12,164 nt of DNA from Synechococcus sp. (lineage in GTDB: Bacteria; Cyanobacteriota; Cyanobacteriia; Thermostichales; PCC-7336), in assembly GCA_051439605.1 (NCBI GenBank), contig JBFRWN010000130.1, forward strand, positions 1 through 12,164. Direction: 5' to 3'. The first letter of the stretch is position 1. Each line of letters begins with the position of its first letter. This document shows positions 1,213 through 12,164 of the stretch, piece by piece. The notes under the pieces are model-generated. The model did no database searches. It saw only the letters and a list, made by a program, of their open reading frames with translations, and was not told the origin of the DNA. The position numbers were made by a program, and so were the translations under genes.

Positions 1213-1884
1213 ATGAGTCACATCACGCTGGCATGGATGCAGGCGGGACAACGGGTATCCCGCAAACTTCAGGCGGACGCTCCCGAACTGAAGGGCGGTC
1301 CCATCCGCATCGGTCGAGATCCCGCCCAATGCACTATCGTGCTGCCATCGCTGACCGATCGCGATCGCACCGTCTCCCGCTGCCATGTGGAAATTACCTT
1401 TAATCCGCTCAACTACGGCTTTTACCTGACCAATCTCAAAGCCAATAACCCCGCCTACGTGGGGGGGCAGTTGGTGACTGGGCCAACCATGCTGACTCAA
1501 GGGTGCACCATCCAACTGGGTGAAATCGAACTCACGGTGGAGAACCTGGCTTCGGTTCCAGAAACCGTGATTGTGAAGCCTCCAGCCGAACAAGCCACCA
1601 TTCTGCGCGATCGCGTCTACCCCGTCGCACCATTGCCACAGCCAGCCTCCCCCATGCCCAAAACCGCCCCTCAGTCACCACCAGCAGCCACCCCCACGCC
1701 GCCAGCCGCTGAACCAGCACAGCCCCCACCCGCCAACCCTCCCGGCTCGGTCTTCGATGTGGTCAAAGACCGTCTGTTCTCCTGCCCGCAGGGCCACAAA
1801 TACACGCTGGAAGAAGCCAAAGACCTGGGCTGGGTTTGCAAATACGATGGCTACCTGATCACCAGTACGTTTATTGCAAAATAA
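1213..1884 (+). CDS. FHA-domain protein with Pro/Ala-rich linker and C-terminal putative metal-binding knuckle
   Basis: 223 aa, good SD. FHA signatures IRIGRD, VSRCH, NLKANNP, IQLG. Pro-rich middle. C-terminal CPQGH-x13-CKYDG. Confidence 0.9.
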   Translation: MSHITLAWMQAGQRVSRKLQADAPELKGGPIRIGRDPAQCTIVLPSLTDRDRTVSRCHVEITFNPLNYGFYLTNLKANNPAYVGGQLVTGPTMLTQGCTIQLGEIELTVENLASVPETVIVKPPAEQATILRDRVYPVAPLPQPASPMPKTAPQSPPAATPTPPAAEPAQPPPANPPGSVFDVVKDRLFSCPQGHKYTLEEAKDLGWVCKYDGYLITSTFIAK

Positions 1885-2116
1885 GGATTCTCTGGCATTC
1901 CATCCCCATTTTTCAGATGTTGGGTGACAGCGGTCAACACAGGCAAAATCTGCTTCTCTCAGATCCCCTCACGACAAGTCTCGCGGCCAGAAAAATTAAG
2001 AAAGCTAAGCCTTTTTGGCCAACCCCAGCGAGCCTCAAAAACCATTGGGATGGTTGAAATAACTTGAATCCGTATCAGACATTCATTGCCAAGGTCAATT
2101 CGTTATGTGGATATAA

Positions 2117-4048
2117 ATGTCTAGGTCGACAATCGTTACAGTCAGTTGGACAGAGCCAACCACCGGGCAATCCCGCCAAGAGTCTCTCACCGCACCGATT
2201 GTGTTTGGGCGGGCGGCGATCGCCATGCCCAGCTCCCTCAACGGACTGCCCACCAGCCCCGTAGAGCTAAATGACGGCAATATTTCTCGCTATCACCTGC
2301 TGCTAGATTGGCAGGGCGATCGCCTGGTGGCCACCGACCAAAACAGCCGTAACGGCAGCTACTTGAACGGACAACGCATTCAAGAGGAAGCAGTCCCCTC
2401 CGGAGCTCTCCTGCAATTAGGCCCCTTCTCCATTTCAGTCAGCTTCGCCGCTGTTAGCTCTACCCCTTCTGCCCCTCCAAACACGCCCGCCCCAGCTCCT
2501 GAGGGAACCGTCATTCGTCGAGTGCGAACCTCTCGAGACATTCTCCAGGAACGCCAAATCGATCCGCGCGAAATTCAAGCCAACCGCTTACCGCTAGCAG
2601 AAGTCGACTTTGTCACCGTTGGGGGTGGGCTGGGCAGCTACATTTGGGCTGATTATTTGCGCATTTTCGGGGCAGCCACCCATCAGATTGCCGCATTAGG
2701 CATGCGCGAACCAGCCCCCTACTGCAACTACAAGCGCCTCTGCCTCAATTCCCAAATTCCCCTGCACGAGAGGCTGCGCTCCAACTCCGATTCCTGCCCC
2801 GACAACATCTGGGGGTGGCCCGGCTACGCTCTGCGGGAGGCCTGGCATGACTTTCAGCGGAGCCGAACTGGCAGTGCCGCTAGATACCTATGGCAGGTGT
2901 TTGGGGAACCGACATTTGTGGAAACCTATACCCCTCGAGCGGGGAACGTGTTTGATTCCATCGATCGCGAAGCCAACCGCATCGGCTGGGATCGCATCTG
3001 GCGCTACGGACGGGTGAAGGCCGTTCGCCAAACCACCGACGGTCGCTACGCGATCGCCTACGCCCAATCGGATGAAAAGCAAGATCCTGCCTTCCTCATA
3101 GCCCGCTATGTCCTATTAGCCACCGGCTATCCCAAAATTCAGTTCCTGCCCGACCTGCAGGCCTATCGCGAACGATATGAAGACTTCCGCACCGTCGTGA
3201 ATGCCTATGAAGATCACAGCCACGTTTACCAACAGCTCTCGCAAGCGGGGGGGACGATTGTGCTCAGGGGACGAGGGATTGTGGCCTCCCGCATTATTCA
3301 ACGGATTATGGAAGTGCGGCAACAGACAGGGAGGGACATTCGGGTACTGCACTTAATGCGATCGCCCAAAACCCAGGGAAATCGCTTCAAACTTGCCAAG
3401 CGCACTGTCTCCAACCACTTTGAATTTCAGCCCTTTAACTGGCCCAAAGCCTGTTGGGGGGGCGATCTGCGGGAGGTGCTCGAAAAAGCCAGCGATAGCC
3501 AGCGGGACGAGCTGATAAAGGTGTGGGGGGGCACGACAACAGCGGATCGCACCGATTGGCGAGACATCGTGAATCGCAGTCTCAAAGAGGGCTGGTACAG
3601 CATTCGATTTGGCACTGTCACGCAGGTTCGTCCCAACCCCAATGGCGGCACCCTCACCACGGTGACAGAAGATATCGGCGAACGGGAGGTGCAAGCAGAC
3701 TTCATTGTGGATGCCACCGGTCTAGATGCTGAAGTGAAGTACAACCCAATGCTGGAGGACTTGGTCCAGCACTATCAACTGCCCCTCAACCCCCGCAAGC
3801 GATTGGGAGTGAACAAGCAATTTGAAGTTCAACCTATGCGGCAACGGCAGGGGCGCATCTACGCCATCGGGGCGATCGCCTTTGGCGGTCCCTACGCCGC
3901 TGTCGACAGCTTCCTGGGTTTGCAATTTGCCGCCCAGTGGGTCCTTGATGACATGGTGAGAGCAGATGCCCCCAACCTGCGCCGTTTGGATGGCTGGGGG
4001 TCTTTCAATCAATGGATCAAATGGGCCACGAATCAAGCCCCTAACTAA
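2117..4048 (+). CDS. FHA domain fused to FAD/NAD(P)H-dependent oxidoreductase (class B flavoprotein monooxygenase-like)
   Basis: 643 aa. N-terminal FHA (IVFGR, ISRYH, DQNSRNGSYLNG, LQLGPF). First Rossmann VGGGLGS (2618-2638), LATGY (3116-3130), second Rossmann RGRGIVA (3266-3286), DFIVDATG (3698-3721), IYAIG (3857-3871). Confidence 0.85.
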   Translation: MSRSTIVTVSWTEPTTGQSRQESLTAPIVFGRAAIAMPSSLNGLPTSPVELNDGNISRYHLLLDWQGDRLVATDQNSRNGSYLNGQRIQEEAVPSGALLQLGPFSISVSFAAVSSTPSAPPNTPAPAPEGTVIRRVRTSRDILQERQIDPREIQANRLPLAEVDFVTVGGGLGSYIWADYLRIFGAATHQIAALGMREPAPYCNYKRLCLNSQIPLHERLRSNSDSCPDNIWGWPGYALREAWHDFQRSRTGSAARYLWQVFGEPTFVETYTPRAGNVFDSIDREANRIGWDRIWRYGRVKAVRQTTDGRYAIAYAQSDEKQDPAFLIARYVLLATGYPKIQFLPDLQAYRERYEDFRTVVNAYEDHSHVYQQLSQAGGTIVLRGRGIVASRIIQRIMEVRQQTGRDIRVLHLMRSPKTQGNRFKLAKRTVSNHFEFQPFNWPKACWGGDLREVLEKASDSQRDELIKVWGGTTTADRTDWRDIVNRSLKEGWYSIRFGTVTQVRPNPNGGTLTTVTEDIGEREVQADFIVDATGLDAEVKYNPMLEDLVQHYQLPLNPRKRLGVNKQFEVQPMRQRQGRIYAIGAIAFGGPYAAVDSFLGLQFAAQWVLDDMVRADAPNLRRLDGWGSFNQWIKWATNQAPN

Positions 4049-4052
4049 CTGC

Positions 4053-4057
4053 AGGAG
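4053..4057 (+). promoter_or_regulatory. Shine-Dalgarno site of the 4064 gene
   Basis: AGGAG 6 nt before ATG 4064, inside a 15-nt intergenic gap. Confidence 0.75.
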
Positions 4058-4063
4058 TATCCC

Positions 4064-4426
4064 ATGACCCCCACATTATTGGGCCGTTGGCAAACCAGAG
4101 TGTTGCTGTTTGGCACGATCGGAGCCTTAGTCTCGATCCCATTTGGGGCCACGGCCCTAGAAATTTTGCTGTATGCGCTGATCCTGGGGCTGTTTTGGGA
4201 TGTGCTTTACACGTGGATTCAAAAATTTCGCTGGGATCGCGATTGGCCCGCCGCTTTGCAGCTTGCCGCCGGTATCTGGGAAGGTTTAGTGCTGTGGACA
4301 TTATTTTTTGGCTTCTTCAGCTGGGTCCATTACAGCTTGGTGTGGCTGGGGGTATTTATCGGCTCGCAAAGCCTCATGCGATTAATGTTTCCCCGCTGGA
4401 GGTTTAGGGGAGGGCGGTGGTTTTAG
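4064..4426 (+). CDS. Small integral membrane protein of unknown function (about 4 TM segments)
   Basis: 120 aa, strong SD, 15 nt after the upstream stop. Four hydrophobic stretches separated by Arg/Trp-rich loops (GRWQTR, KFRWDRDWP, FPRWRFRGGRWF). Confidence 0.85.
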   Translation: MTPTLLGRWQTRVLLFGTIGALVSIPFGATALEILLYALILGLFWDVLYTWIQKFRWDRDWPAALQLAAGIWEGLVLWTLFFGFFSWVHYSLVWLGVFIGSQSLMRLMFPRWRFRGGRWF

Positions 4427-4586
4427 TCCCCGCTTCCTATCCGACGAGCCTCAGTCACCTGTCCCCCTTGAATAGTGAAGGCAAGTGGACGTGCCTGACG
4501 AGAACTGCAAGCAGGCTGGCCTAGATAACTTACATGTTTGGCCCAGATGCTTCTGACCCTTGATGTATTAGGAATTGGTGAGATCG

Positions 4587-6338
4587 ATGCTGCTCAGCAA
4601 CCGCTACGAAGTCATCCGAGAAAAAGAGCTGGGTGAAGGGGGTTTTGGCAAAACCTATCTGGCAATCGACACCCAATTGCCCAGCAAACCCCAATGCGTG
4701 GTTAAAGAGCTCAAACCGCAAACCGAGATTGATTTTGAGGAGGTATTAAAGCGGTTCGAACAAGAAGCTGCCATCCTTGACAAGCTGGGCCAGCAACATC
4801 CACAAATTCCAAAGCTGTTCGCCTATTTCGCCGACAGCGGAAAATTTTATCTCGTCCAAGAATTTGTCGAGGGACAAACGCTAGCTTCCCGCATTCAAGC
4901 ACAGGGGGCTCTCAGCGAAATGGAAGTCTACCGGCTGCTCTGCCAGACATTGCCGATCTTGAGCTACATCCACACAGAAGGAGTCATTCACCGCGACATC
5001 AAACCAGACAACATCATCCTGCGGGCCTCCGACAACATGCCCGTGCTGATTGATTTTGGGGCGGTAAAAGAAACCTTGGGTCAGTTGGGGGTTACCGCTT
5101 TACCCCCCACGATTTCCATCGGCACCCTCGGGTTTATGTCCAGCGAACAGGCGGCAGGTCGACCGATATTTTCTAGCGATATCTTCAGTTTGGGGGTGAC
5201 CGCAATTTATGCCCTGACGCAAAAAGGCCCGCTATCCCACACCACCAACCCCAAAAATGGGCTAATGGAGTGGCACAATCCCGGTACCCCCCTTAACATC
5301 AGTCCCCAATTCGCTGCGGTCCTCGATCGCGCCATTCATCCCTCCATCGAGCAGCGCTACACCAATGCTGACGAGATGCTGTCGGATTTGATGGCAATGA
5401 ACCAAACCCAACCCGGCCATGGCGCTCAGCCCGCTTCACCAGGCCAGACTATCCCCGAAACAACGCTGGCTGCCTCTGCACCAACGCCACCCGTGCCGAC
5501 ACCATCAGTACCTGCCAGCTCAAGCGCCAGTGCACTAGAGGAAACAACATATTCGCCAACTCCTCCTGAAGGGGCAGGCAGCTCATCGGCCCCCTCCGAA
5601 CGAGCAACTATTGCCCCTGGGAACATTCCCTTCGGCGGTCGATCTGCCAGTGCCTCCGCTATCCCCGAAGAACCCAAGCCCTCTAAATTTCCTTGGGTAC
5701 CCGTGGGTGCCATTGGTATACCCGTCACCCTGATCGTCGCGGCGATCGCCCTGTTTGCAGCCAGTGAGAACTTTAGTGGCAGCGACAATTGCACCACCGT
5801 CACCACGACTGCAGGGAATGAAACCAACACCACAGTGGTGTGCGATGGGGATGAACCCAACACGCCAAACAGCATTGAGACAGTCAACAATCCACCCATT
5901 ACACCAGTAGAACCTATCACCAAAGCCCCTTTGGAGGAGCCCACCAACCCATCGGCAACAATCGACTGTTCTCGAGCTGACGACAGTGGTGACTATTGCG
6001 ATTTCACCCTTGACCCAGGTTTCCTCCCCGATCCCGTCATCGGGACAGGACTTTCTGGAGGCCCCAACTTCACAGAGGATTGCGGCTATGTCGATGACGA
6101 ACCGGACCATATCGTCACCCTGACACAAGAAATTCCCTACCTGCTGTCTTACGTAGAAGCCGCTGGGGATGTCACCTTGCTGATTACGGGACCTGATGGA
6201 CGCTTCTGTAACGACGATACAGAGGGATTATTACCCGAAATTTCTGGATACTGGCCCCAAGGAACCTATCAAATTTGGGTAGGGGATTGGGACAACGAAG
6301 GGCTGCCCTATTCCTTATTCCTGACAGAGGTTGAGTAG
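4587..6338 (+). CDS. Transmembrane Hanks-type (Pkn2-like) Ser/Thr protein kinase with extracytoplasmic PPC-like domain
   Basis: LGEGGFG, VVKEL, HRDIKPDN, DFG, GTLGFMSSEQ, SDIFSLG. Pro/Ser/Thr linker, TM segment at about 5688-5762, acidic C-terminal domain. ATG 4587 (MLLSNRY, preceded by GGTGAG) preferred over TTG 4575. Confidence 0.93.
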   Translation: MLLSNRYEVIREKELGEGGFGKTYLAIDTQLPSKPQCVVKELKPQTEIDFEEVLKRFEQEAAILDKLGQQHPQIPKLFAYFADSGKFYLVQEFVEGQTLASRIQAQGALSEMEVYRLLCQTLPILSYIHTEGVIHRDIKPDNIILRASDNMPVLIDFGAVKETLGQLGVTALPPTISIGTLGFMSSEQAAGRPIFSSDIFSLGVTAIYALTQKGPLSHTTNPKNGLMEWHNPGTPLNISPQFAAVLDRAIHPSIEQRYTNADEMLSDLMAMNQTQPGHGAQPASPGQTIPETTLAASAPTPPVPTPSVPASSSASALEETTYSPTPPEGAGSSSAPSERATIAPGNIPFGGRSASASAIPEEPKPSKFPWVPVGAIGIPVTLIVAAIALFAASENFSGSDNCTTVTTTAGNETNTTVVCDGDEPNTPNSIETVNNPPITPVEPITKAPLEEPTNPSATIDCSRADDSGDYCDFTLDPGFLPDPVIGTGLSGGPNFTEDCGYVDDEPDHIVTLTQEIPYLLSYVEAAGDVTLLITGPDGRFCNDDTEGLLPEISGYWPQGTYQIWVGDWDNEGLPYSLFLTEVE

Positions 6339-6460: not shown

Positions 6461-7546
6461 CTACTGGCTGTTGCTACGATCTAGGCACGCTTGCCACCAG
6501 TCACGATTTTCTAAGTACCATCGAACCGTTTCCTCCAGACCTTGCTCAAGGTTAACGGTCGGTTCCCATCCCAAGTCCGCCTTAATTTTGCTGGCATCGA
6601 TGGCATAGCGACGATCGTGGCCGGGACGATCGGTGACGAAAGCAATCAACTGGCGGGCAGGACTCACCGGCAATTCAGGAGCCAGTCGATCCATTAGGTC
6701 GCAGAGGGTTTTGACTAAGTCGAGGTTTTTGACTTCGTTATTGCCGCCAATATTGTAAGTCTCCCCCGGTTGCGCCCCGTGAATAACCGCGTCAAGGGCG
6801 AGGCAGTGGTCCCGCACGAACAGCCAATCCCGCACGTTTTGTCCGTCGCCGTACACTGGCAGGGGCTTACCCAACAGAATGTTCAGACACATCAACGGAA
6901 TCAGCTTTTCCGGAAAATGATAAGGACCGTAGTTATTGGAGCAGTTGGTGATCAGGGTGGGCATTCCATACGTGTGGAAGTAGGAACGCACCAAATGATC
7001 GCTACCGGCCTTCGAAGCAGAGTAAGGGCTGTTGGGGGCGTAGGGGGTGGTTTCGCTAAAGGCAGGATCGGTGGGTCCTAAGCTGCCATACACTTCGTCC
7101 GTGGACACGTGCAGGAAGCGATCGCCCTCAGGCTGGCCGCGCTTCGTCCAATAGTGGCGGTAGGCCTCCAGCAGGGTAAAGGTACCCACCACATTCGTCT
7201 GAATAAAATCATCGGGACCTACAATAGACCGATCAACGTGGGATTCTGCCGCAAAGTGGGCCACGGTATCGATCTTGCCATCCGTCAGCAGCCAATCCAC
7301 CAGCGAGCGATCGCAGATATCTCCCTCCACAAAATCCAGCTTCAGCCCTTGAATGTTCTCTAAGTTACCTGCATAGGTGAGGGCATCTAGCACCACTACA
7401 CGATCGTTGGGATAGCGATCGCACCAATGCCTGACGAAATTCGTACCGATAAACCCAGCGCCACCAGTAATTAAAATATTGCGCGGCGTTCTTTCGCTGT
7501 CTTGACCCACCGTAGCATTCATCTGTTCAGTTGCAAGATTTTGCAT
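6461..7546 (-). CDS. rfbB: dTDP-glucose 4,6-dehydratase
   Basis: [54 protein letters not shown] 7546 has GGAG 8 nt upstream; alternative ATGs at 7579, 7564 and 7522. Confidence 0.96.
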
Positions 7547-7584
7547 TGCCCTATCTCCAGTCATCTCCTCCACACCCATCAGTC

Positions 7585-8658
7585 CTACACCAGCTCCACT
7601 TGTGAATCTTTCCCCAGAGAAAACCGTAGCGCCTTGGGACGCTGGGGGGCCAGTTTGAGGTGCGATCGCTCGCCGATGAGGCTGTCCACGATCCGCTGGT
7701 CGATCCCCTCCACCTTTGCCCCCTGCAGGATGACGCTGTGTTCGATATCGGCATCGATCAGGGTAACTTCATCCCCAATGCTGCTGTAAGGGCCGATAAA
7801 ACAATTCTCTAGATGACAGCGGGTGCCAATAATAGCCGGACCGCGGACGGTACAGTTTCTCAGCACAGAATCGGCACCAATTTGAACCCGTCCAGTCACT
7901 TGACTGTCCCCCTCAACAAGGCCAGCAATATCTTCCTTCAGCTGGGTATCGAGAATAATCCGATTCGCCTCCAGCAGGTCGTCTTTCTTGCCGGTATCCA
8001 ACCACCACCCCTGCAGCTGGCAAGACTCCACCGCACGCTCGTCCGCAATCAGTTGCTGAATGGCGTCGGTAATTTCAAGTTCTCCTCGCGATGAGGGCTG
8101 AATTTTGGCGATCGCATCGTGAACGATCGGGGCAAAAAAGTACAGCCCCACTAACGCCAGATTGGAGGGGGGGTGCTTGGGTTTTTCCACCAAGCGACGC
8201 ACCCGACCCCTCTCATCCACATCGGCCACACCGAATGCGGTGGGGTTGGACACCGGCTTGAGCAAAATCAGACTGTCGAGGGACTGCTCGCGGAACTGCT
8301 GTAGGAAGCCCCCTAGATTATCCTGAATCAGGTTGTCCCCAAGGTACATCACAAAGGGAGAGTCCTGCAGAAAAGGCTGCGCCACTTTGACGGCATGGGC
8401 CAAGCCATCAGGACTCTCTTGGCGAATGTAGGTGATTTTGGCCCCAAACCGGTCGCCACTGCCCGTCTTCTCTCGAATCTCGTCCCCTGTTTCTGGGTTG
8501 ACAATAATGCCAATGTCCGTCACTCCAGCCGCCACTAACCCGTCGATGCCGTACCACAGAATCGGTTTGTTTGCGACGGGCACCAATTGCTTGGCTCCTG
8601 TGTGAGTTAGGGGGCGCAGGCGGGTTCCTTTTCCACCCGACAAAATCAGTGCTTTCAT
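7585..8658 (-). CDS. rfbA: Glucose-1-phosphate thymidylyltransferase, long form with C-terminal left-handed beta-helix
   Basis: 357 aa from ATG 8658: [55 protein letters not shown], then hexapeptide-like repeats. Lies within an rml operon. Confidence 0.94.
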
Positions 8659-8678
8659 GGACAGGTTTCTCAGATGTT

Positions 8679-9593
8679 TTAATCGGAAGAGATGGGCTCG
8701 GATTGGGGCACCAATAGCTCCGCCAGCATCAAGTGCAAGCTGTGCCGCCAGTGGGGAGGGGCTTGGTTCAGCAGTTGGGAAATTTTGCTTGTATCCAAAA
8801 CAGAGTAATGGGGACGCTGGGCAGGGGTGGGATAGTTCGCCGTGGAGATCGGAATCACTCGCTCTACCGCTAAATCGGTAAGGTGGCGAGCTTCTTCGAA
8901 AATCGCTACTGCAAAGTCGTACCAACTAGCTACGCCACTGTTGGTGTAGTGGTAGGTGCCGTAATAGCTTTCCCCTAAAGATGCATCAGGCTGCAGCTTA
9001 GCAATACAGTTGGCGATTGCCTGGGCTAAATCCCTCGACCAGGTGGGGCTCCCCACTTGATCTGCCACCACTCGCAGTTCTGGCCGAATCCGACCCAGAC
9101 GCAACATGGTTTTGACAAAATTTCCCGGTCCCTTGGCTCCGTAAACCCAAGCAGTGCGGATGATGCAATGGCGATCGCAGCAGGATCGCACGGCCTCCTC
9201 CCCAGCTAGCTTTGAGCGCCCATATTCCCCCAACGGATGGGTGTCAGCCGTTTCCAGATAGGGTGTGCTAGCATCCCCTGAAAACACGTAGTCGGTGGAG
9301 ATATGGACTAGAGTGGCCCCTTGTTGCACAACAGCCTTCGCGATCTCGCAGGGGGCTTCCGCATTCACAATGTAGGCTAGCTCGCTTTCGCTTTCCGCCC
9401 GATCGACGGCGGTGTAGGCAGCCGCATTCACGATGATGTCCGGAGCCTGTTGAGCGATCGCTGGCTGAATACCCTCCAGTTGAGCTAGATCCAGCTGCTG
9501 TCGCCCCCAAGCCACTACATCTCCCAAGGGTTGCAACGTCTGCTGCAGCTCTTGCCCCACTTGGCCGTTCGCCCCCAGCAGCAAAATCTTCAC
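8679..9593 (-). CDS. rfbD: dTDP-4-dehydrorhamnose reductase
   Basis: GANGQVG, NAAAYTAVD, HISTDYVF, YGRSKLAGE, RTAWVY, DQVGSPT. The GTG start overlaps the rfbC stop (GTGA). Confidence 0.96.
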   Translation of the reverse strand: MKILLLGANGQVGQELQQTLQPLGDVVAWGRQQLDLAQLEGIQPAIAQQAPDIIVNAAAYTAVDRAESESELAYIVNAEAPCEIAKAVVQQGATLVHISTDYVFSGDASTPYLETADTHPLGEYGRSKLAGEEAVRSCCDRHCIIRTAWVYGAKGPGNFVKTMLRLGRIRPELRVVADQVGSPTWSRDLAQAIANCIAKLQPDASLGESYYGTYHYTNSGVASWYDFAVAIFEEARHLTDLAVERVIPISTANYPTPAQRPHYSVLDTSKISQLLNQAPPHWRHSLHLMLAELLVPQSEPISSD

Positions 9594-10144
9594 GACTCAA
9601 ACACCTCTGCATCTTCAAACGAGCTGGCAGCAGCATCTTTTGCCGACAGCACCGGCTCTAAATCGGCAGGCAGGGGCCAGGAGATCGCCAGTTGAGGATC
9701 GTTCCACCGAATGGCTCGTTCGTGGACAGGGGCATAATAATCTGTGGCCTTGTACAATACTTCGGCAGCATCGGACAGCACCAAAAAGCCGTGGGCAAAC
9801 CCGGAAGGAACCCACATTTGGCGCTTGTTCTCGGCAGTTAGAATCTCTCCCACCCACTGACCAAACGTAGGGGAACTCCGGCGAATATCCACCGCCACAT
9901 CAAAGATTTCCCCCGCCACTACCCGCACCAGCTTCCCTTGAGACTGCTGAATTTGGTAATGCAGCCCTCTAAGAATCCATTGGGAGGATCGGGAATGGTT
10001 GTCCTGAACAAACTGGACAGTAGAATCCACTGTGTCTGCAAAGCGTTGTTGATGAAAGCTTTCAAAAAAAAATCCCCGGCGATCGCCAAAGACAGTGGGC
10101 TCGATTATTTTGACATCCGGAATAGAGGTGGAGACAACGTTCAT
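9590..10144 (-). CDS. rfbC: dTDP-4-dehydrorhamnose 3,5-epimerase
   Basis: FGDRRGFFFE, QDNHSRS, LRGLHYQ, QGKLVR, DVAVDIR, GFAHGF, LSAKD. ATG 10144, with an in-frame TTG at 10147. Confidence 0.96.
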   Translation of the reverse strand: MNVVSTSIPDVKIIEPTVFGDRRGFFFESFHQQRFADTVDSTVQFVQDNHSRSSQWILRGLHYQIQQSQGKLVRVVAGEIFDVAVDIRRSSPTFGQWVGEILTAENKRQMWVPSGFAHGFLVLSDAAEVLYKATDYYAPVHERAIRWNDPQLAISWPLPADLEPVLSAKDAAASSFEDAEVFES

Positions 10145-10272
10145 CAAGCTAGTAGGTCAAATTACTTAGACTGGCCGAGATAGATTGGATAGCCGTATCG
10201 ATATTACAGTGCTGAGGTTCCCATTTCGAGCCAGCGATGCTGTTTACTTCCTCGCGAATTCCCAAACTGCAG

Positions 10273-11370
10273 CTAGAGAAACTGCTGTAAAACTGCTGCC
10301 GTCGCCTGCCCAGTTTTTGTCCAGCTAAATTGAGCAGCCCGCGCGATTCCCGCCTGCCGCAACTGCGATCGCGTCGCTGAGTTATCAACTAGCTCCCCCA
10401 TCGCCGTCGCTAGTTCCGACACGTTCAGGGGGTTAACCAAAATCGCTGCGTCCCCCGCCACCTCCGGTAGCGAAGATCGGTCACTGGCGATCGCTGGTGT
10501 ACCGCAGGCCATCGCCTCCAGTACCGGCAACCCAAACCCCTCCCACAAGCTAGGAAACACAAATCCTAGCGCTTGGTTAAACAGCCGCAGCAGATCGTCA
10601 TCGGGAACGTAGGACAAAAACTTGATAGCCTCAGTCACCCCCAGTTCGCGGGCTAACTGCTGCAGCTGGGGGGTGAAACGAGTGTCCTGCGGCCCCGCCA
10701 GCCAAAACTCCACTTCATGGCGATCGCGCACTTGGGCAAAGGCCCGCAGAGCCCGCTGGAGGTTTTTATGGGGATCGTGACGACCTACGTACAGAAAGTA
10801 ATTCTGAGGAGGTAGGTCCAGCGGTCGAAAGCGAGCTAGATCCACAGCCAGCGGGATGGCAGTCACCTGGTTAGCAGGTACCCCAAACCACTCCACTACA
10901 TCCCTTGCCGTAGCCTCAGAGTTAGTAATAACGTGCTGAGCCTGAGCCACCACCCGTGGAATGTAATAGCGAAAGTAAGGGAACAGGGGCGATCGGCGGT
11001 TGGGAAAGCGGAGAGGGATCAGATCGTGCACCATAACCACTGAGCGGCAACAAGAAAAAAGCGGAGTCTCCGGCACAGGGGAAAACAAGAGGTTTGCCCC
11101 CAATTCCCGATAAATTTTGGGCAATTGAAACTGCGTCCATAACAGTCGCCGCAGGTGACCGAGCTTGCCTTGAGCAGGGGTGAGATTATTGGGTACCCAA
11201 TAGATATCGCTGGCCGCTAGCGCTGAATTGGCCTGAAACGATCGGGCGCTCAGCAACGTCGGCTCTAGGGTCTGTAGGTGCGGCACAACGTTAGTGGCGT
11301 AGTTGCTGATGCCAGTGGGTTTATCGAGCAAAAAAGACAGGTTCACCAACAGGGGATGGGATGGGCTCAA
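10273..11370 (-). CDS. Family 4 (GT-B, MtfB/WbpY-like) glycosyltransferase
   Basis: 365 aa. [43 protein letters not shown] (EX7E), [10 protein letters not shown]. The TTG start overlaps the upstream stop (TTGA). Confidence 0.93.
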
Positions 11371-12164
11371 ACGCTCCTGCTCAAATAGCGCGCAACGCCA
11401 TACAGCTTACCAAAAGCGGTGGCGGGCCTGAGGGGAAGTAAGGCGATCGCCACCCCTAGTAAGCGCAGAAAGCGCCAGAGTCTAGCGCTGGCAGAAGCGT
11501 ACCGTCCCAGTACGAGTAAATAGCTAAAGGTGCTGTGGTTGAGCTTGTTAAACAGATTTCGGTTGGTCACGGATGAAGGGGTATGAACCACCGAAAAGCG
11601 ATGTGTGATTGCAACGGTATACCCTTGCAATCGATACCGTTGGCAGAAATCGAAATCCTCGTAATAGAGGAAAAAGGCGGGATCGAATTGGGGACATTGC
11701 TCAAAGCAGTCAAAATGAATCAGCATGCTACAACCCGACACCCAATCGCAGGGCTGAAAGGGCCGTTCATCACAGATATCTAGATCTTGAGAGGAGATCG
11801 TGCCACTGACACCATCAAACAAGCCACCCCCAAACCATTGCTCCCCTCCATCGGTATAGATGATGGTTCCCAAGATTGCTAAGGACTCCTGCTGCCGCAC
11901 GAACACCTGCAACTCCGAAAGGGAGAGAGTTTCGGGTAGACGGGCATCCGGATTGATCAGCCACACCAACGCCTGGGGATCCCGCGCAAAAATCCACTCC
12001 AACCCTACATTGCAGGCCCGCCCAAACCCCACATTCTCGGGTGACTCCAAAATGGTCGCGTTGGCTTTCTGTAACGCTGCCAATTGGCGATCGCCAGCAG
12101 AGTTATTGACAATAACTAGGTGATAGGGGCAATCAGCAGCTGCAGTAACAGACTCCATCAAAGT
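11367..12164 (-). CDS. Family 2 glycosyltransferase (WbbL/rhamnosyltransferase-like), 5'-truncated by the window edge
   Basis: VIVNNS, NVGFGRACNVG, LINPDA, WVSGCSML, FDPAFFLYYEDFDFCQR. The frame stays open to 12164 and the first beta-strand of the GT-A fold is absent. Confidence 0.9.
   Translation of the reverse strand, partial: TLMESVTAAADCPYHLVIVNNSAGDRQLAALQKANATILESPENVGFGRACNVGLEWIFARDPQALVWLINPDARLPETLSLSELQVFVRQQESLAILGTIIYTDGGEQWFGGGLFDGVSGTISSQDLDICDERPFQPCDWVSGCSMLIHFDCFEQCPQFDPAFFLYYEDFDFCQRYRLQGYTVAITHRFSVVHTPSSVTNRNLFNKLNHSTFSYLLVLGRYASASARLWRFLRLLGVAIALLPLRPATAFGKLYGVARYLSRSV

Follow-up and report, generated by a model that had tools for sequence, protein, structure and literature searches.

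A widespread FHA adaptor, flavoenzyme and membrane protein module with putative phosphothreonine control in Synechococcus sp. and other bacteria

The stretch of DNA analysed (the window) comprises the 12,164 nucleotides of contig JBFRWN010000130.1 from a Synechococcus sp. assembly (GCA_051439605.1). Four genes at positions 1213-6338, all on the + strand, are real: an adaptor (ORF1, 1213-1884, 223 aa), a flavoenzyme (ORF2, 2117-4048, 643 aa), a membrane protein termed M (ORF3, 4064-4426, 120 aa) and a receptor kinase (ORF4, 4587-6338, 583 aa counted from an ATG). The ORF list gives a TTG start at 4575 for ORF4; the orthologues in loci L001 and L002 start at the same ATG. The intergenic gaps measure 232 nt (ORF1-ORF2), 15 nt (ORF2-ORF3) and 160 nt (ORF3-ORF4). 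An earlier note on this DNA had described four co-directional genes, two with FHA domains and one encoding a transmembrane kinase with an ectodomain, and a membrane protein gene 15 nt behind the enzyme gene; the ORFs, Pfam and hydropathy bore out the former and the coordinates 4048-4064 the latter. A flanking alpha/beta hydrolase gene and dTDP-rhamnose cluster were rejected as module members, their position being shared by close relatives only. Promoter and terminator scans of the locus remained at chance level, the Rfam search of the locus returned no match, and the repeats present were mostly the cyanobacterial HIP1 octamer. Shared upstream DNA motifs were dropped, as the enriched words seemed either confined to single lineages or belonged to the coding sequence of the adaptor; a SigJ-type pattern matched 6 and an NtcA-type pattern 16 of 111 adaptor upstream regions.

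The adaptor carries an FHA domain at aa 31-103 (Pfam, E-value 1.7e-13), in which G34-R35, S55, H58 and N79 were invariant in all 24 aligned sequences and the position after the Asn is mostly Pro, not Gly. The GR, SxxH and Asn motifs are present in the FHA domains of both adaptor and enzyme, and by its sequence the adaptor likely reads phosphothreonine. Elsewhere in the cyanobacteria, FHA domains of this subtype occur as fusions with Ser/Thr kinases (4/4 scanned, of seven such matches). At the C-terminus lies a Zn ribbon of a C191/H195, C209/D212 variant (C191 and C209 nearly invariant), which had previously been overlooked. The adaptor linker is Pro-rich with Thr-hydrophobic-hydrophobic motifs, of which T118 and T129 are candidate phosphosites. 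Using linkers taken from the last FHA strand (106 distinct adaptors, of which 2 could not be parsed and 5 with linkers under 20 aa were dropped), the Thr motif, a pattern picked after the adaptor alignment had been seen, was counted in 77 of 99 linkers, close kin included, versus 18.5 ± 3.7 in shuffles, and a Ser control motif in 15 linkers versus 21.4 in shuffles. At the level of these sequences the linker motif is Thr-specific. A later linker start (11 of 93 versus 5.8) was rejected because it began too far downstream. Since a similar Thr motif also follows the kinase domain in background kinases (11/66, and 5/16 neighbour kinases, all five from this lineage), the motif is not module-specific.

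The FHA domain of the enzyme (aa 29-102, Pfam E-value 7.3e-11) retains the phosphate-binding residues G31-R32, S57, H60 and N79. It precedes an FAD/NAD(P)H domain (aa ~135-643) that resembles class B flavin monooxygenases and carries the motifs GxGxxS (169-174) and GxGxxA (385-390), R415 and DATG (532-535). For this part Pfam returned Pyr_redox_2 alone, below threshold (E-value 7e-5); PF13434 gave no match at E ≤ 0.1 (one sister-family protein barely passes, 21.4 versus 21.3), TIGR04018 was not matched by the enzyme, and sequence searches of the PDB using the enzyme domain as query returned nothing useful. The structure model (pLDDT 95) resembles two-dinucleotide-binding flavoproteins, with Foldseek and VIA matches spanning residues 158-625. 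The best Foldseek rows were all SidA/PvdA/KtzI/DesB/DfoA (E-value 3e-17), and in VIA PvdA (Z 25.6, rmsd 3.4, 384 aligned) tied on Z with Bdr/YpdA (Z 26.1, rmsd 2.7, 316 aligned), at 9-18% identity to all solved relatives. The modelled fold is thus nearest to the N-hydroxylating monooxygenases, tied with Bdr/YpdA. Bdr/YpdA and the thioredoxin-reductase-fold FNRs have the same FAD/NADPH core as ORF2, but Bdr/YpdA lack the helical insertions and align over about 316 residues. With the N-hydroxylating class B enzymes (SidA, PvdA, KtzI, DesB/DfoA and lysine 6-monooxygenase; PF13434) ORF2 has in common the two-Rossmann fold with helical insertions, the GxGxxA second motif with an Arg after it (R415) and the ATG motif, whereas it differs in its low identity (12-16%, below the Pfam threshold), its GxGxxS FAD motif, the FHA fusion, a C-terminal helix, a dedicated membrane partner and the lack of siderophore genes nearby.

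Class B flavin monooxygenases possess two dinucleotide-binding domains, the FAD domain being split by the NADPH domain (PMC13557801), and the ORF2 model has this arrangement. Among 87 aligned enzymes the NADPH motif GxGxxG/A is kept (G385, G387 and A390 in 87, 86 and 81 rows). The FAD motif has its first two Gly in 85 and 86 rows and Ser at the sixth place in 82 of 87; it conforms in part to GxGxxG and departs from the GxGxx(N/A) of N-hydroxylating monooxygenases (PMC9005580). The FMO-identifying motif FxGxxxHxxxY/W is absent, with Asn362 (Asn in 58, His in 14 of 87) at the place of the His, followed by A-Y; this His is missing from some families (PMC13557801). The ATG-containing (FATGY) motif is present, with D532, T534 and G535 in 82, 81 and 86 of 87 rows and Leu instead of Tyr (ATGL). 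In SidA, as given in the available text of PMC7347517, Arg279 after the NADPH-domain strand serves the 2'-phosphate of NADPH, and Lys107, Asn293, Asn323 and Ser469 bind the amino acid. The profile of a sister family (see below) aligns to the lysine 6-monooxygenase 5cqf across the NADPH-domain insertion, and through it R415 (77/87) aligns to the 5cqf Arg as a match to the NADPH-phosphate Arg. By the same two-step profile alignment K444 (Lys in 69, Arg in 15 of 87) and T474/T475 fall at two Asn of 5cqf, which we take to be SidA Asn293 and Asn323. The N-hydroxylase substrate-binding residues hence appear replaced in the ORF2 family, the amino-acid-binding Asn positions by Lys/Arg and Thr/Ser.

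M belongs to no Pfam or NCBIfam family. Its hydropathy and its model (four long helices, pLDDT 91) describe a four-helix membrane protein, in whose alignment three motifs are conserved (N-terminus, loop 2 and C-terminus); these are predicted to form the docking site for the enzyme. A Foldseek search with M returned nothing at E ≤ 0.001, and the best VIA match (Z 8.6) lay within the helical-bundle background. Complex modelling docked the enzyme on M with a score of 0.84 (best of three controls 0.01), the mark for this score being passed by 116 of 157 solved pairs and 2 of 215 mismatched pairs; the runs share at least 84% of contacts, with a partner pLDDT of at least 89. As M is without a clear solved homologue, the model is unlikely to reproduce a complex already solved. 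Conservation was higher in the interface columns than in the remaining ones, for both M (0.72 versus 0.58) and the enzyme (0.60 versus 0.53). In these models, which make an enzyme-M complex highly probable, M is predicted to bind the helical insertions and the C-terminal helix of the enzyme. The matching region of N-hydroxylases (helical insertions) forms the substrate pocket. By contacting this substrate-pocket region, M would act as an anchor for the enzyme and either gate its active site or feed it.

ORF4 matches Pkinase (Pfam, E-value 9.4e-38) and preserves its catalytic motifs (Gly loop at 16-21, K40, HRD at 135-137, DFG at 156-158). The kinase domain is followed by a Thr-rich juxtamembrane linker, a single hydrophobic stretch and a further domain at the C-terminus. 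These four motifs, one predicted membrane helix (5703..5759, + strand, about aa 373-391, Kyte-Doolittle scan) and an extracytoplasmic domain (5952..6335, + strand, ~128 aa) identify it as a putative Hanks-type receptor Ser/Thr kinase. The ectodomain matches no Pfam family and presumably resembles PPC-like secreted domains. Its identity to the product of a free-standing gene on contig C138 (same genome) is 62%, versus 32-38% to its counterparts in orthologous kinases, and the sensor domain has likely been swapped recently. According to the trees kinase orthology is confined to this lineage, with the same five loci grouped in the enzyme and kinase trees, and the neighbour kinases of cyanobacteria are polyphyletic. 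At a cut-off of 1e-60, kinase matches were counted in 118 of the 301 genomes, among them 18/18 of one family without the enzyme. One dedicated kinase clade had been suggested by a first tree (quick method), which put 8 neighbours in a 9-row clade, and was rejected when, with the top-scoring paralogues added, this grew to 41 rows, mostly non-neighbours.

The adaptor, the flavoenzyme and M form a widespread module, and the kinase is a replaceable input outside this conserved unit. Among 301 genomes the enzyme was found in 65 and M in 66, all 65 enzyme genomes also carrying M; in the sole genome with M only (G297), M and the adaptor are adjacent but each is interrupted by internal stops, and the enzyme has no match. 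Two genomes encode two full enzymes, and both of these genomes carry two M genes. The adaptor is present in 56 of the 65 enzyme genomes, and of the nine without an adaptor match at 1e-30 two possess a diverged FHA gene immediately upstream. M lies downstream of the enzyme in 10/10 Chloroflexota loci and in 53 of the 54 high-GC loci with enough flank, a redundant set drawn from the best 80 of 576 matches for one query. The linkage of adaptor, enzyme and M is far above chance. A kinase occurs within 3 kb in 7 of 45 cyanobacterial loci (at most 2.4 expected; three of the seven are from one genus) and within 8 kb in 10 of 45 (at most 5.1 expected). Of the four-gene system proposed in the earlier note, the part comprising adaptor, enzyme and M thus stands as a conserved linkage and the kinase drops out as a fixed fourth member, being orthologous in this lineage only and absent next to most cyanobacterial loci. 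Neighbours of the module at some loci are PP2C, FHA-PrsW, FHA-ABC and antiporter-FHA genes.

A sister flavoprotein family, likewise uncharacterised, was found in Chloroflexota and in records labelled Gaiellaceae. It matches the ORF2 enzyme over the full-length profile (probability 100) and in 5/5 genomes an M-like domain (probability 92, E-value 6.6e-7) comes after it, but unlike this module it has neither FHA nor kinase. In the three loci examined in full the sister M is fused to extra membrane helices and FG-GAP and ASPIC/UnbV domains, and the genes sit inside oligopeptide ABC clusters. Because the FHA-less sister family also precedes an M-like gene, the enzyme-M pair is likely older than the kinase wiring, judging by these gene arrangements.

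Receptor Hanks kinases with FHA readers are known as PknH-EmbR, PknF-Rv1747 and PknB/PknG-GarA/OdhI (PMC6213207, in the text available). Like these mycobacterial and corynebacterial modules, some high-GC loci (from the best 80 of 576 matches) have FHA-ABC and PP2C genes beside them; unlike them, the module here has as output a flavoenzyme with a membrane partner, takes its input from an exchangeable kinase and includes a separate FHA/Zn-ribbon adaptor in its core. Sulfolobus ArnA, a small zinc-finger and FHA protein, binds a phosphorylated partner, the vWA protein ArnB, and represses motility (PMC6509490, in the portion available). The cyanobacterial adaptor has the reversed domain order, and no vWA partner was seen.

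We tentatively prefer, at a little short of an even chance, to see in ORF2 a phosphothreonine-gated, membrane-docked FAD/NADPH monooxygenase that sits on M at the inner membrane face and oxygenates a membrane-delivered substrate. An outside signal would activate the receptor kinase, an exchangeable input encoded here by the neighbouring gene, whose sensor domain has probably been replaced recently; Thr motifs in the kinase linker and the adaptor linker would be phosphorylated, and their binding by the enzyme FHA domain would switch the complex. Phosphothreonine control of the enzyme we regard as quite probable. Recruitment to the membrane via phospho-binding, as suggested earlier, is not supported, attachment being likely by M in a pair that also occurs without the FHA fusion. 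The earlier idea of a monooxygenase-like output holds for a flavoenzyme at the membrane, with monooxygenase chemistry reasonably likely, and is weakened by the apparent replacement of the N-hydroxylase residues and the tie with Bdr/YpdA. The substrate is probably other than ornithine or lysine; our best guess would be a molecule of the envelope that resembles a lipid or is linked to one. The module may act in an envelope or ion-stress response, together with the antiporter and the PrsW protease that recur beside it. It is possible, if more doubtful, that enzyme and M constitute a new type of two-subunit membrane flavin monooxygenase, in which M caps the pocket and feeds the substrate, wired to receptor-kinase/FHA circuits in Cyanobacteria, Chloroflexota and Actinomycetota or to ASPIC/UnbV-ABC transporter clusters; a bacterial receptor-kinase pathway would then have an oxygenated membrane molecule or signal as its direct output.

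Instead of an oxygenase, the pair could also be an NAD(P)H oxidoreductase or a redox sensor docked at the membrane, which under kinase control would regulate a cation/proton antiporter, in analogy to the action of KefF/KefG on KefC/KefB, or would pass electrons to a membrane acceptor. This is unlikely in our estimate. An antiporter (PF00999) is present in 22/23 long high-GC loci (from the best 80 of 576 matches) and is FHA-fused in L057 and L177, but it occurs in just 4/45 cyanobacterial loci, and in neither this window nor the three sister loci examined in full. The tied top structural match of Bdr/YpdA, the seemingly replaced substrate residues and the C-terminal helix within the predicted M interface point towards such a function, and the alignment of the N-hydroxylases, ~70 residues longer than that of Bdr, points away from it. 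A CxxC of any kind is found in only 2/87 enzymes, with no invariant Cys, which speaks against a redox CxxC; as Bdr/YpdA also lack CxxC, this is compatible with Bdr-like chemistry.

That the pair is a constitutive membrane enzyme, with FHA domains merely as scaffold and the adjacent kinase as lineage-specific passenger, seems improbable. It would agree with the pairs of the sister family and of loci L178/L179, which have neither FHA fusion nor kinase, with the polyphyletic kinases in a minority of cyanobacterial loci and with the 232- and 160-nt gaps, which leave room for separate promoters. However, kinases of several lineages have been recruited repeatedly with varied sensor domains (TPR, WD40, DUF4189, RDD, GUN4), a kinase is found in 22/23 long high-GC loci (from the best 80 of 576 matches), and the FHA phosphate-binding residues and the Thr-specific adaptor motif are retained. 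More improbable still is an uncoupled NADPH oxidase releasing H2O2 at the membrane upon kinase firing, as signal or defence: the apparent loss of amino-acid-binding residues would suit an enzyme without a small substrate, and the wiring to receptor kinases with varied sensors and the frequency in two large-genome families (16/16 and 31/37 genomes) also speak for this reading, whereas PADLOC 2.0 matched no family to the adaptor, the enzyme or M and gave generic kinase-domain matches for the kinase, the enzyme gene is mostly single-copy in a neighbourhood stable within families, and the conserved insertions and M interface suggest a shaped pocket.

Cyanobacteria such as Nostocales have dozens of receptor Ser/Thr kinases each, for which, to our knowledge, few outputs are known. 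The module offers a concrete and testable candidate for such an output: T118 and T129 are potential phosphosites, the two FHA proteins would read them, and the enzyme comes with a surface on which it is predicted to dock. If the chemistry is oxygenation, flavin monooxygenases would gain a membrane-partnered branch. In the article texts covered, the literature searches found no description of the module, although source-data tables of comparative-genomics papers could list its genes, supporting the earlier proposal of an undescribed phosphothreonine-linked system; the available text of PMC6584798, PMC7159879, PMC11188069, PMC12419801 and PMC6213207 contains no mention of it. The module is present in named Nostoc, Anabaena, Acaryochloris and Trichodesmium records, and in the source records its genes are labelled merely 'FHA domain-containing' or 'hypothetical'.

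The window is one complete contig (C130; 12,164 nt) from a cyanobacterial genome. The four open reading frames of the earlier note were recovered at its positions in the ORF listing of the window, all on the + strand: a 223-aa FHA/Zn-ribbon protein (the adaptor, 1213..1884), a 643-aa FHA-flavoprotein (the enzyme, 2117..4048), a 120-aa four-helix membrane protein (M, 4064..4426) and a 583-aa Hanks-type receptor Ser/Thr kinase (4587..6338). Pfam searches placed FHA domains in the 223-aa and 643-aa proteins and a Pkinase domain in the last of the four, and gave no family match for M. The kinase gene starts at ATG 4587 and its catalytic motifs are intact. The genome (G000) carries one copy each of adaptor, enzyme and M, and it gave 7 strong kinase and 14 FHA matches; the closest named relatives of the enzyme are 71-79% identical. 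The module is real, widespread and uncharacterized: a literature search found no paper on it, in agreement with the proposal that the system was undescribed. Kinase-FHA modules as such have precedents, whose outputs are regulators, transporters and enzyme inhibitors (excerpts of PMC6213207), and a zinc-finger/FHA adaptor has been described from archaea (excerpts of PMC6509490).

The enzyme and M are an inherited pair. In a phylum survey of 301 genomes the enzyme was found in 65 and M in 66, and 65/65 enzyme genomes had both; G147 and G251 have two enzymes and two M each. In the sole genome with M and no enzyme, G297, the enzyme gene has been lost from the locus without a trace (L300; G297:C2:3198388-3199405), and M and the adjoining adaptor are each interrupted by internal stops. 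Among 45 cyanobacterial loci fetched from the 64 other enzyme genomes (G147 and G251 being represented by their weaker second copy), M lay within 8 kb of the enzyme in 36 and within 600 nt in 24, and it is retained even where distant. M follows the enzyme in 10/10 Chloroflexota loci and in 53/54 high-GC metagenome loci (flank of at least 600 nt; from the best 80 of 576 loci for one query), the single exception looking frameshifted. The high-GC records give no taxonomy and are presumably Actinomycetota, given their 64-77% GC, Atlas labels and a Dactylosporangium M. Of the Nostocales-type loci (L007-L080), 30 have an endonuclease V-like gene upstream, and in 31 a GDSL-like hydrolase gene separates enzyme and M; both genes were assigned by eye and probably reflect lineage synteny.

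Complex modeling of M with the enzyme (residues 133-643) supports, as a prediction, that the two bind, with a score of 0.84 vs 0.01 for the best control, a mark reached by 116/157 solved vs 2/215 mismatched pairs, which is a rough guide for self-built alignments. Runs agreed in at least 84% of contacts, with a partner pLDDT of 89 or more. The predicted interface consists of the three conserved motifs of M and of enzyme residues 231-267, 438-453 and 624-633, which belong to its pair of helical insertions and to the C-terminal helix. The N-hydroxylase counterparts of these insertions form the substrate pocket.

The full-length enzyme model (87 sequences; mean pLDDT 95) ranked N-hydroxylating monooxygenases first in Foldseek (SidA, PvdA; E 3e-17), and re-alignment gave a tie between the bacillithiol disulfide reductase Bdr/YpdA (Z 26.1, rmsd 2.7, 316 residues) and PvdA (Z 25.6, rmsd 3.4, 384 residues). 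In the ESM Atlas three unnamed clusters, mostly Actinomycetota, came first, followed by PF13434/PF13454 clusters (0.97). Compared with the motif set of class B flavin monooxygenases (excerpts of PMC13557801 and PMC9005580), the enzyme has the ATG motif and the two Rossmann motifs, with Ser as the last residue of the FAD motif and mostly Asn at the position of the FMO-identifying His. R415, kept in 77/87 enzymes, matches the position of SidA Arg279, which selects NADPH (excerpts of PMC7347517). A two-step profile alignment via a sister family of FHA-less flavoproteins aligned K444 and T474/T475 with a pair of Asn residues in lysine 6-monooxygenase 5cqf. These Asn we take to be equivalents of the ornithine-binding SidA Asn293 and Asn323. 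By fold and cofactor motifs the enzyme would thus work like a class B monooxygenase, but it is not classed as an N-hydroxylase. The enzyme gene is split or out of frame at L048:6479-8468, L049:6485-8474, L276 and L092 (pseudogene or assembly error), and that of L035, labeled Rhizobium, nests among cyanobacteria with cyanobacterial-looking flanks, so that the bin is probably mislabeled.

In the adaptor an N-terminal FHA domain is followed by a Pro-rich linker and then a Zn ribbon, the latter present in 101/106. Its profile at 1e-30 matched 58/301 genomes: 56 that have the enzyme, G297 with its broken copy, and G225, whose only match is a kinase-FHA fusion. In 37/45 cyanobacterial loci an FHA-only gene is no more than 1.2 kb away from the enzyme; in 21/23 long high-GC loci (from the best 80 of 576) a ribbon-then-FHA protein takes the adaptor's place. 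In the linker, which aligns poorly, a Thr followed by two hydrophobic residues occurs in 77/99 adaptors vs 18.5 +/- 3.7 in shuffles (maximum 30), a pattern picked after inspection of the alignment and counted over related, non-independent sequences; with Ser in place of Thr there is no enrichment (15 vs 21.4). An FHA ligand would require such specificity for Thr. Ser/Thr kinases fused to adaptor-subtype FHA domains were seen at L293:3033-4724, L294, L296 and L299, also L295, L297 and L298, two of them with a weak C-terminal SH3-like match, and an adenylate/guanylate cyclase-FHA gene lies immediately upstream of the adaptor in G607, of the same genus (L273:5826-6743).

The conserved linkage expected in the earlier note held for adaptor, enzyme and M, but not throughout for the kinase, which was within 3 kb in 7/45 cyanobacterial loci (three of one genus), where rough per-genome counts give an expectation of no more than 2.4, and present in 12/80 named-genome loci. 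Since the kinase tree (support 98) and the enzyme tree group the same five loci (window, L001, L002, L273, L014), the four-gene cassette is inherited within this lineage. Neighboring kinases outside it occupy at least four other tree positions and carry TPR, WD40, DUF4189, RDD or GUN4 domains. A kinase is found in 22/23 long high-GC loci (from the best 80 of 576); one recurring type there comprises a kinase domain of ~265 aa alone, often next to a full-length kinase, and with an HRD-like motif and no DFG or Gly loop match (L104:10942-11733 and similar) it is a probable pseudokinase. The outer domain of the window kinase (5952-6335) shares 62% identity with a free-standing gene (G000:C138:7669-8196) vs 32-38% with the domains of its orthologs, which share 44-87% among themselves, so a recent sensor swap seems the simplest reading. 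This domain family is unnamed, and the genome also has a tandem two-domain copy (G000:C75:97667-98653).

An M-anchored, kinase/FHA-controlled enzyme using NADPH and O2 is the most likely mechanism. M, on which the enzyme is predicted to dock, would hold it at the membrane, over the enzyme's pocket; the receptor kinase would phosphorylate linker threonines, and the FHA domains would bring kinase, adaptor and enzyme together. Pairing, fold and motifs are established here, and docking is a prediction; we infer the phospho-control, as well as the oxygenation and the substrate class: NADPH and O2 would be consumed to act on a substrate delivered via the membrane. The main rival, in which the enzyme is a reductase or redox sensor controlling an antiporter, draws on antiporters in 22/23 long high-GC loci (from the best 80 of 576) and on antiporter-FHA fusions beside the module; an antiporter is, however, linked in only 4/45 cyanobacterial loci. 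The cation/proton antiporter-FHA fusions adjoin the module in Chloroflexota (L057:3835-5580, L177:5258-7048). FHA-PrsW protease genes also flank the module, divergent in Acaryochloris-type loci (7/80; e.g., L005:4224-5672) and upstream in high-GC loci (20/87, some with PP2C; e.g., L159:4661-7196).

Weak Chloroflexota matches led to the sister family (full-length match to the enzyme profile, probability 100), present in 5/401 Chloroflexota genomes (L301:7923-12235 in G333, L302, L303, L308, L309). The next gene starts with an M-like domain in 5/5; in the three fully read loci, which lie within oligopeptide ABC clusters, this domain is fused to extra membrane helices, FG-GAP repeats and ASPIC/UnbV, and neither FHA nor kinase was found. 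In a FastTree enzyme tree the sister family is the deepest branch, the FHA-less high-GC enzymes form one clade and the FHA-fused Chloroflexota and Cyanobacteria enzymes another. The enzyme-M pair is thus likely older than the kinase wiring, an order that is tentative because long branches join near the root. The sister flavoprotein and M-like gene look like a separate undescribed system.

Elsewhere in the window, an alpha/beta hydrolase gene (123-1019, +) precedes the adaptor, a position kept only in the close relative L002. The - strand at 6461-12164 carries an ordinary dTDP-rhamnose cluster (dehydratase, nucleotidyltransferase, reductase and epimerase, assigned by eye) with two glycosyltransferases; its ORF 7585-8925, listed as 446 aa, is over-extended, being 357 aa in the relatives L001 and L002.
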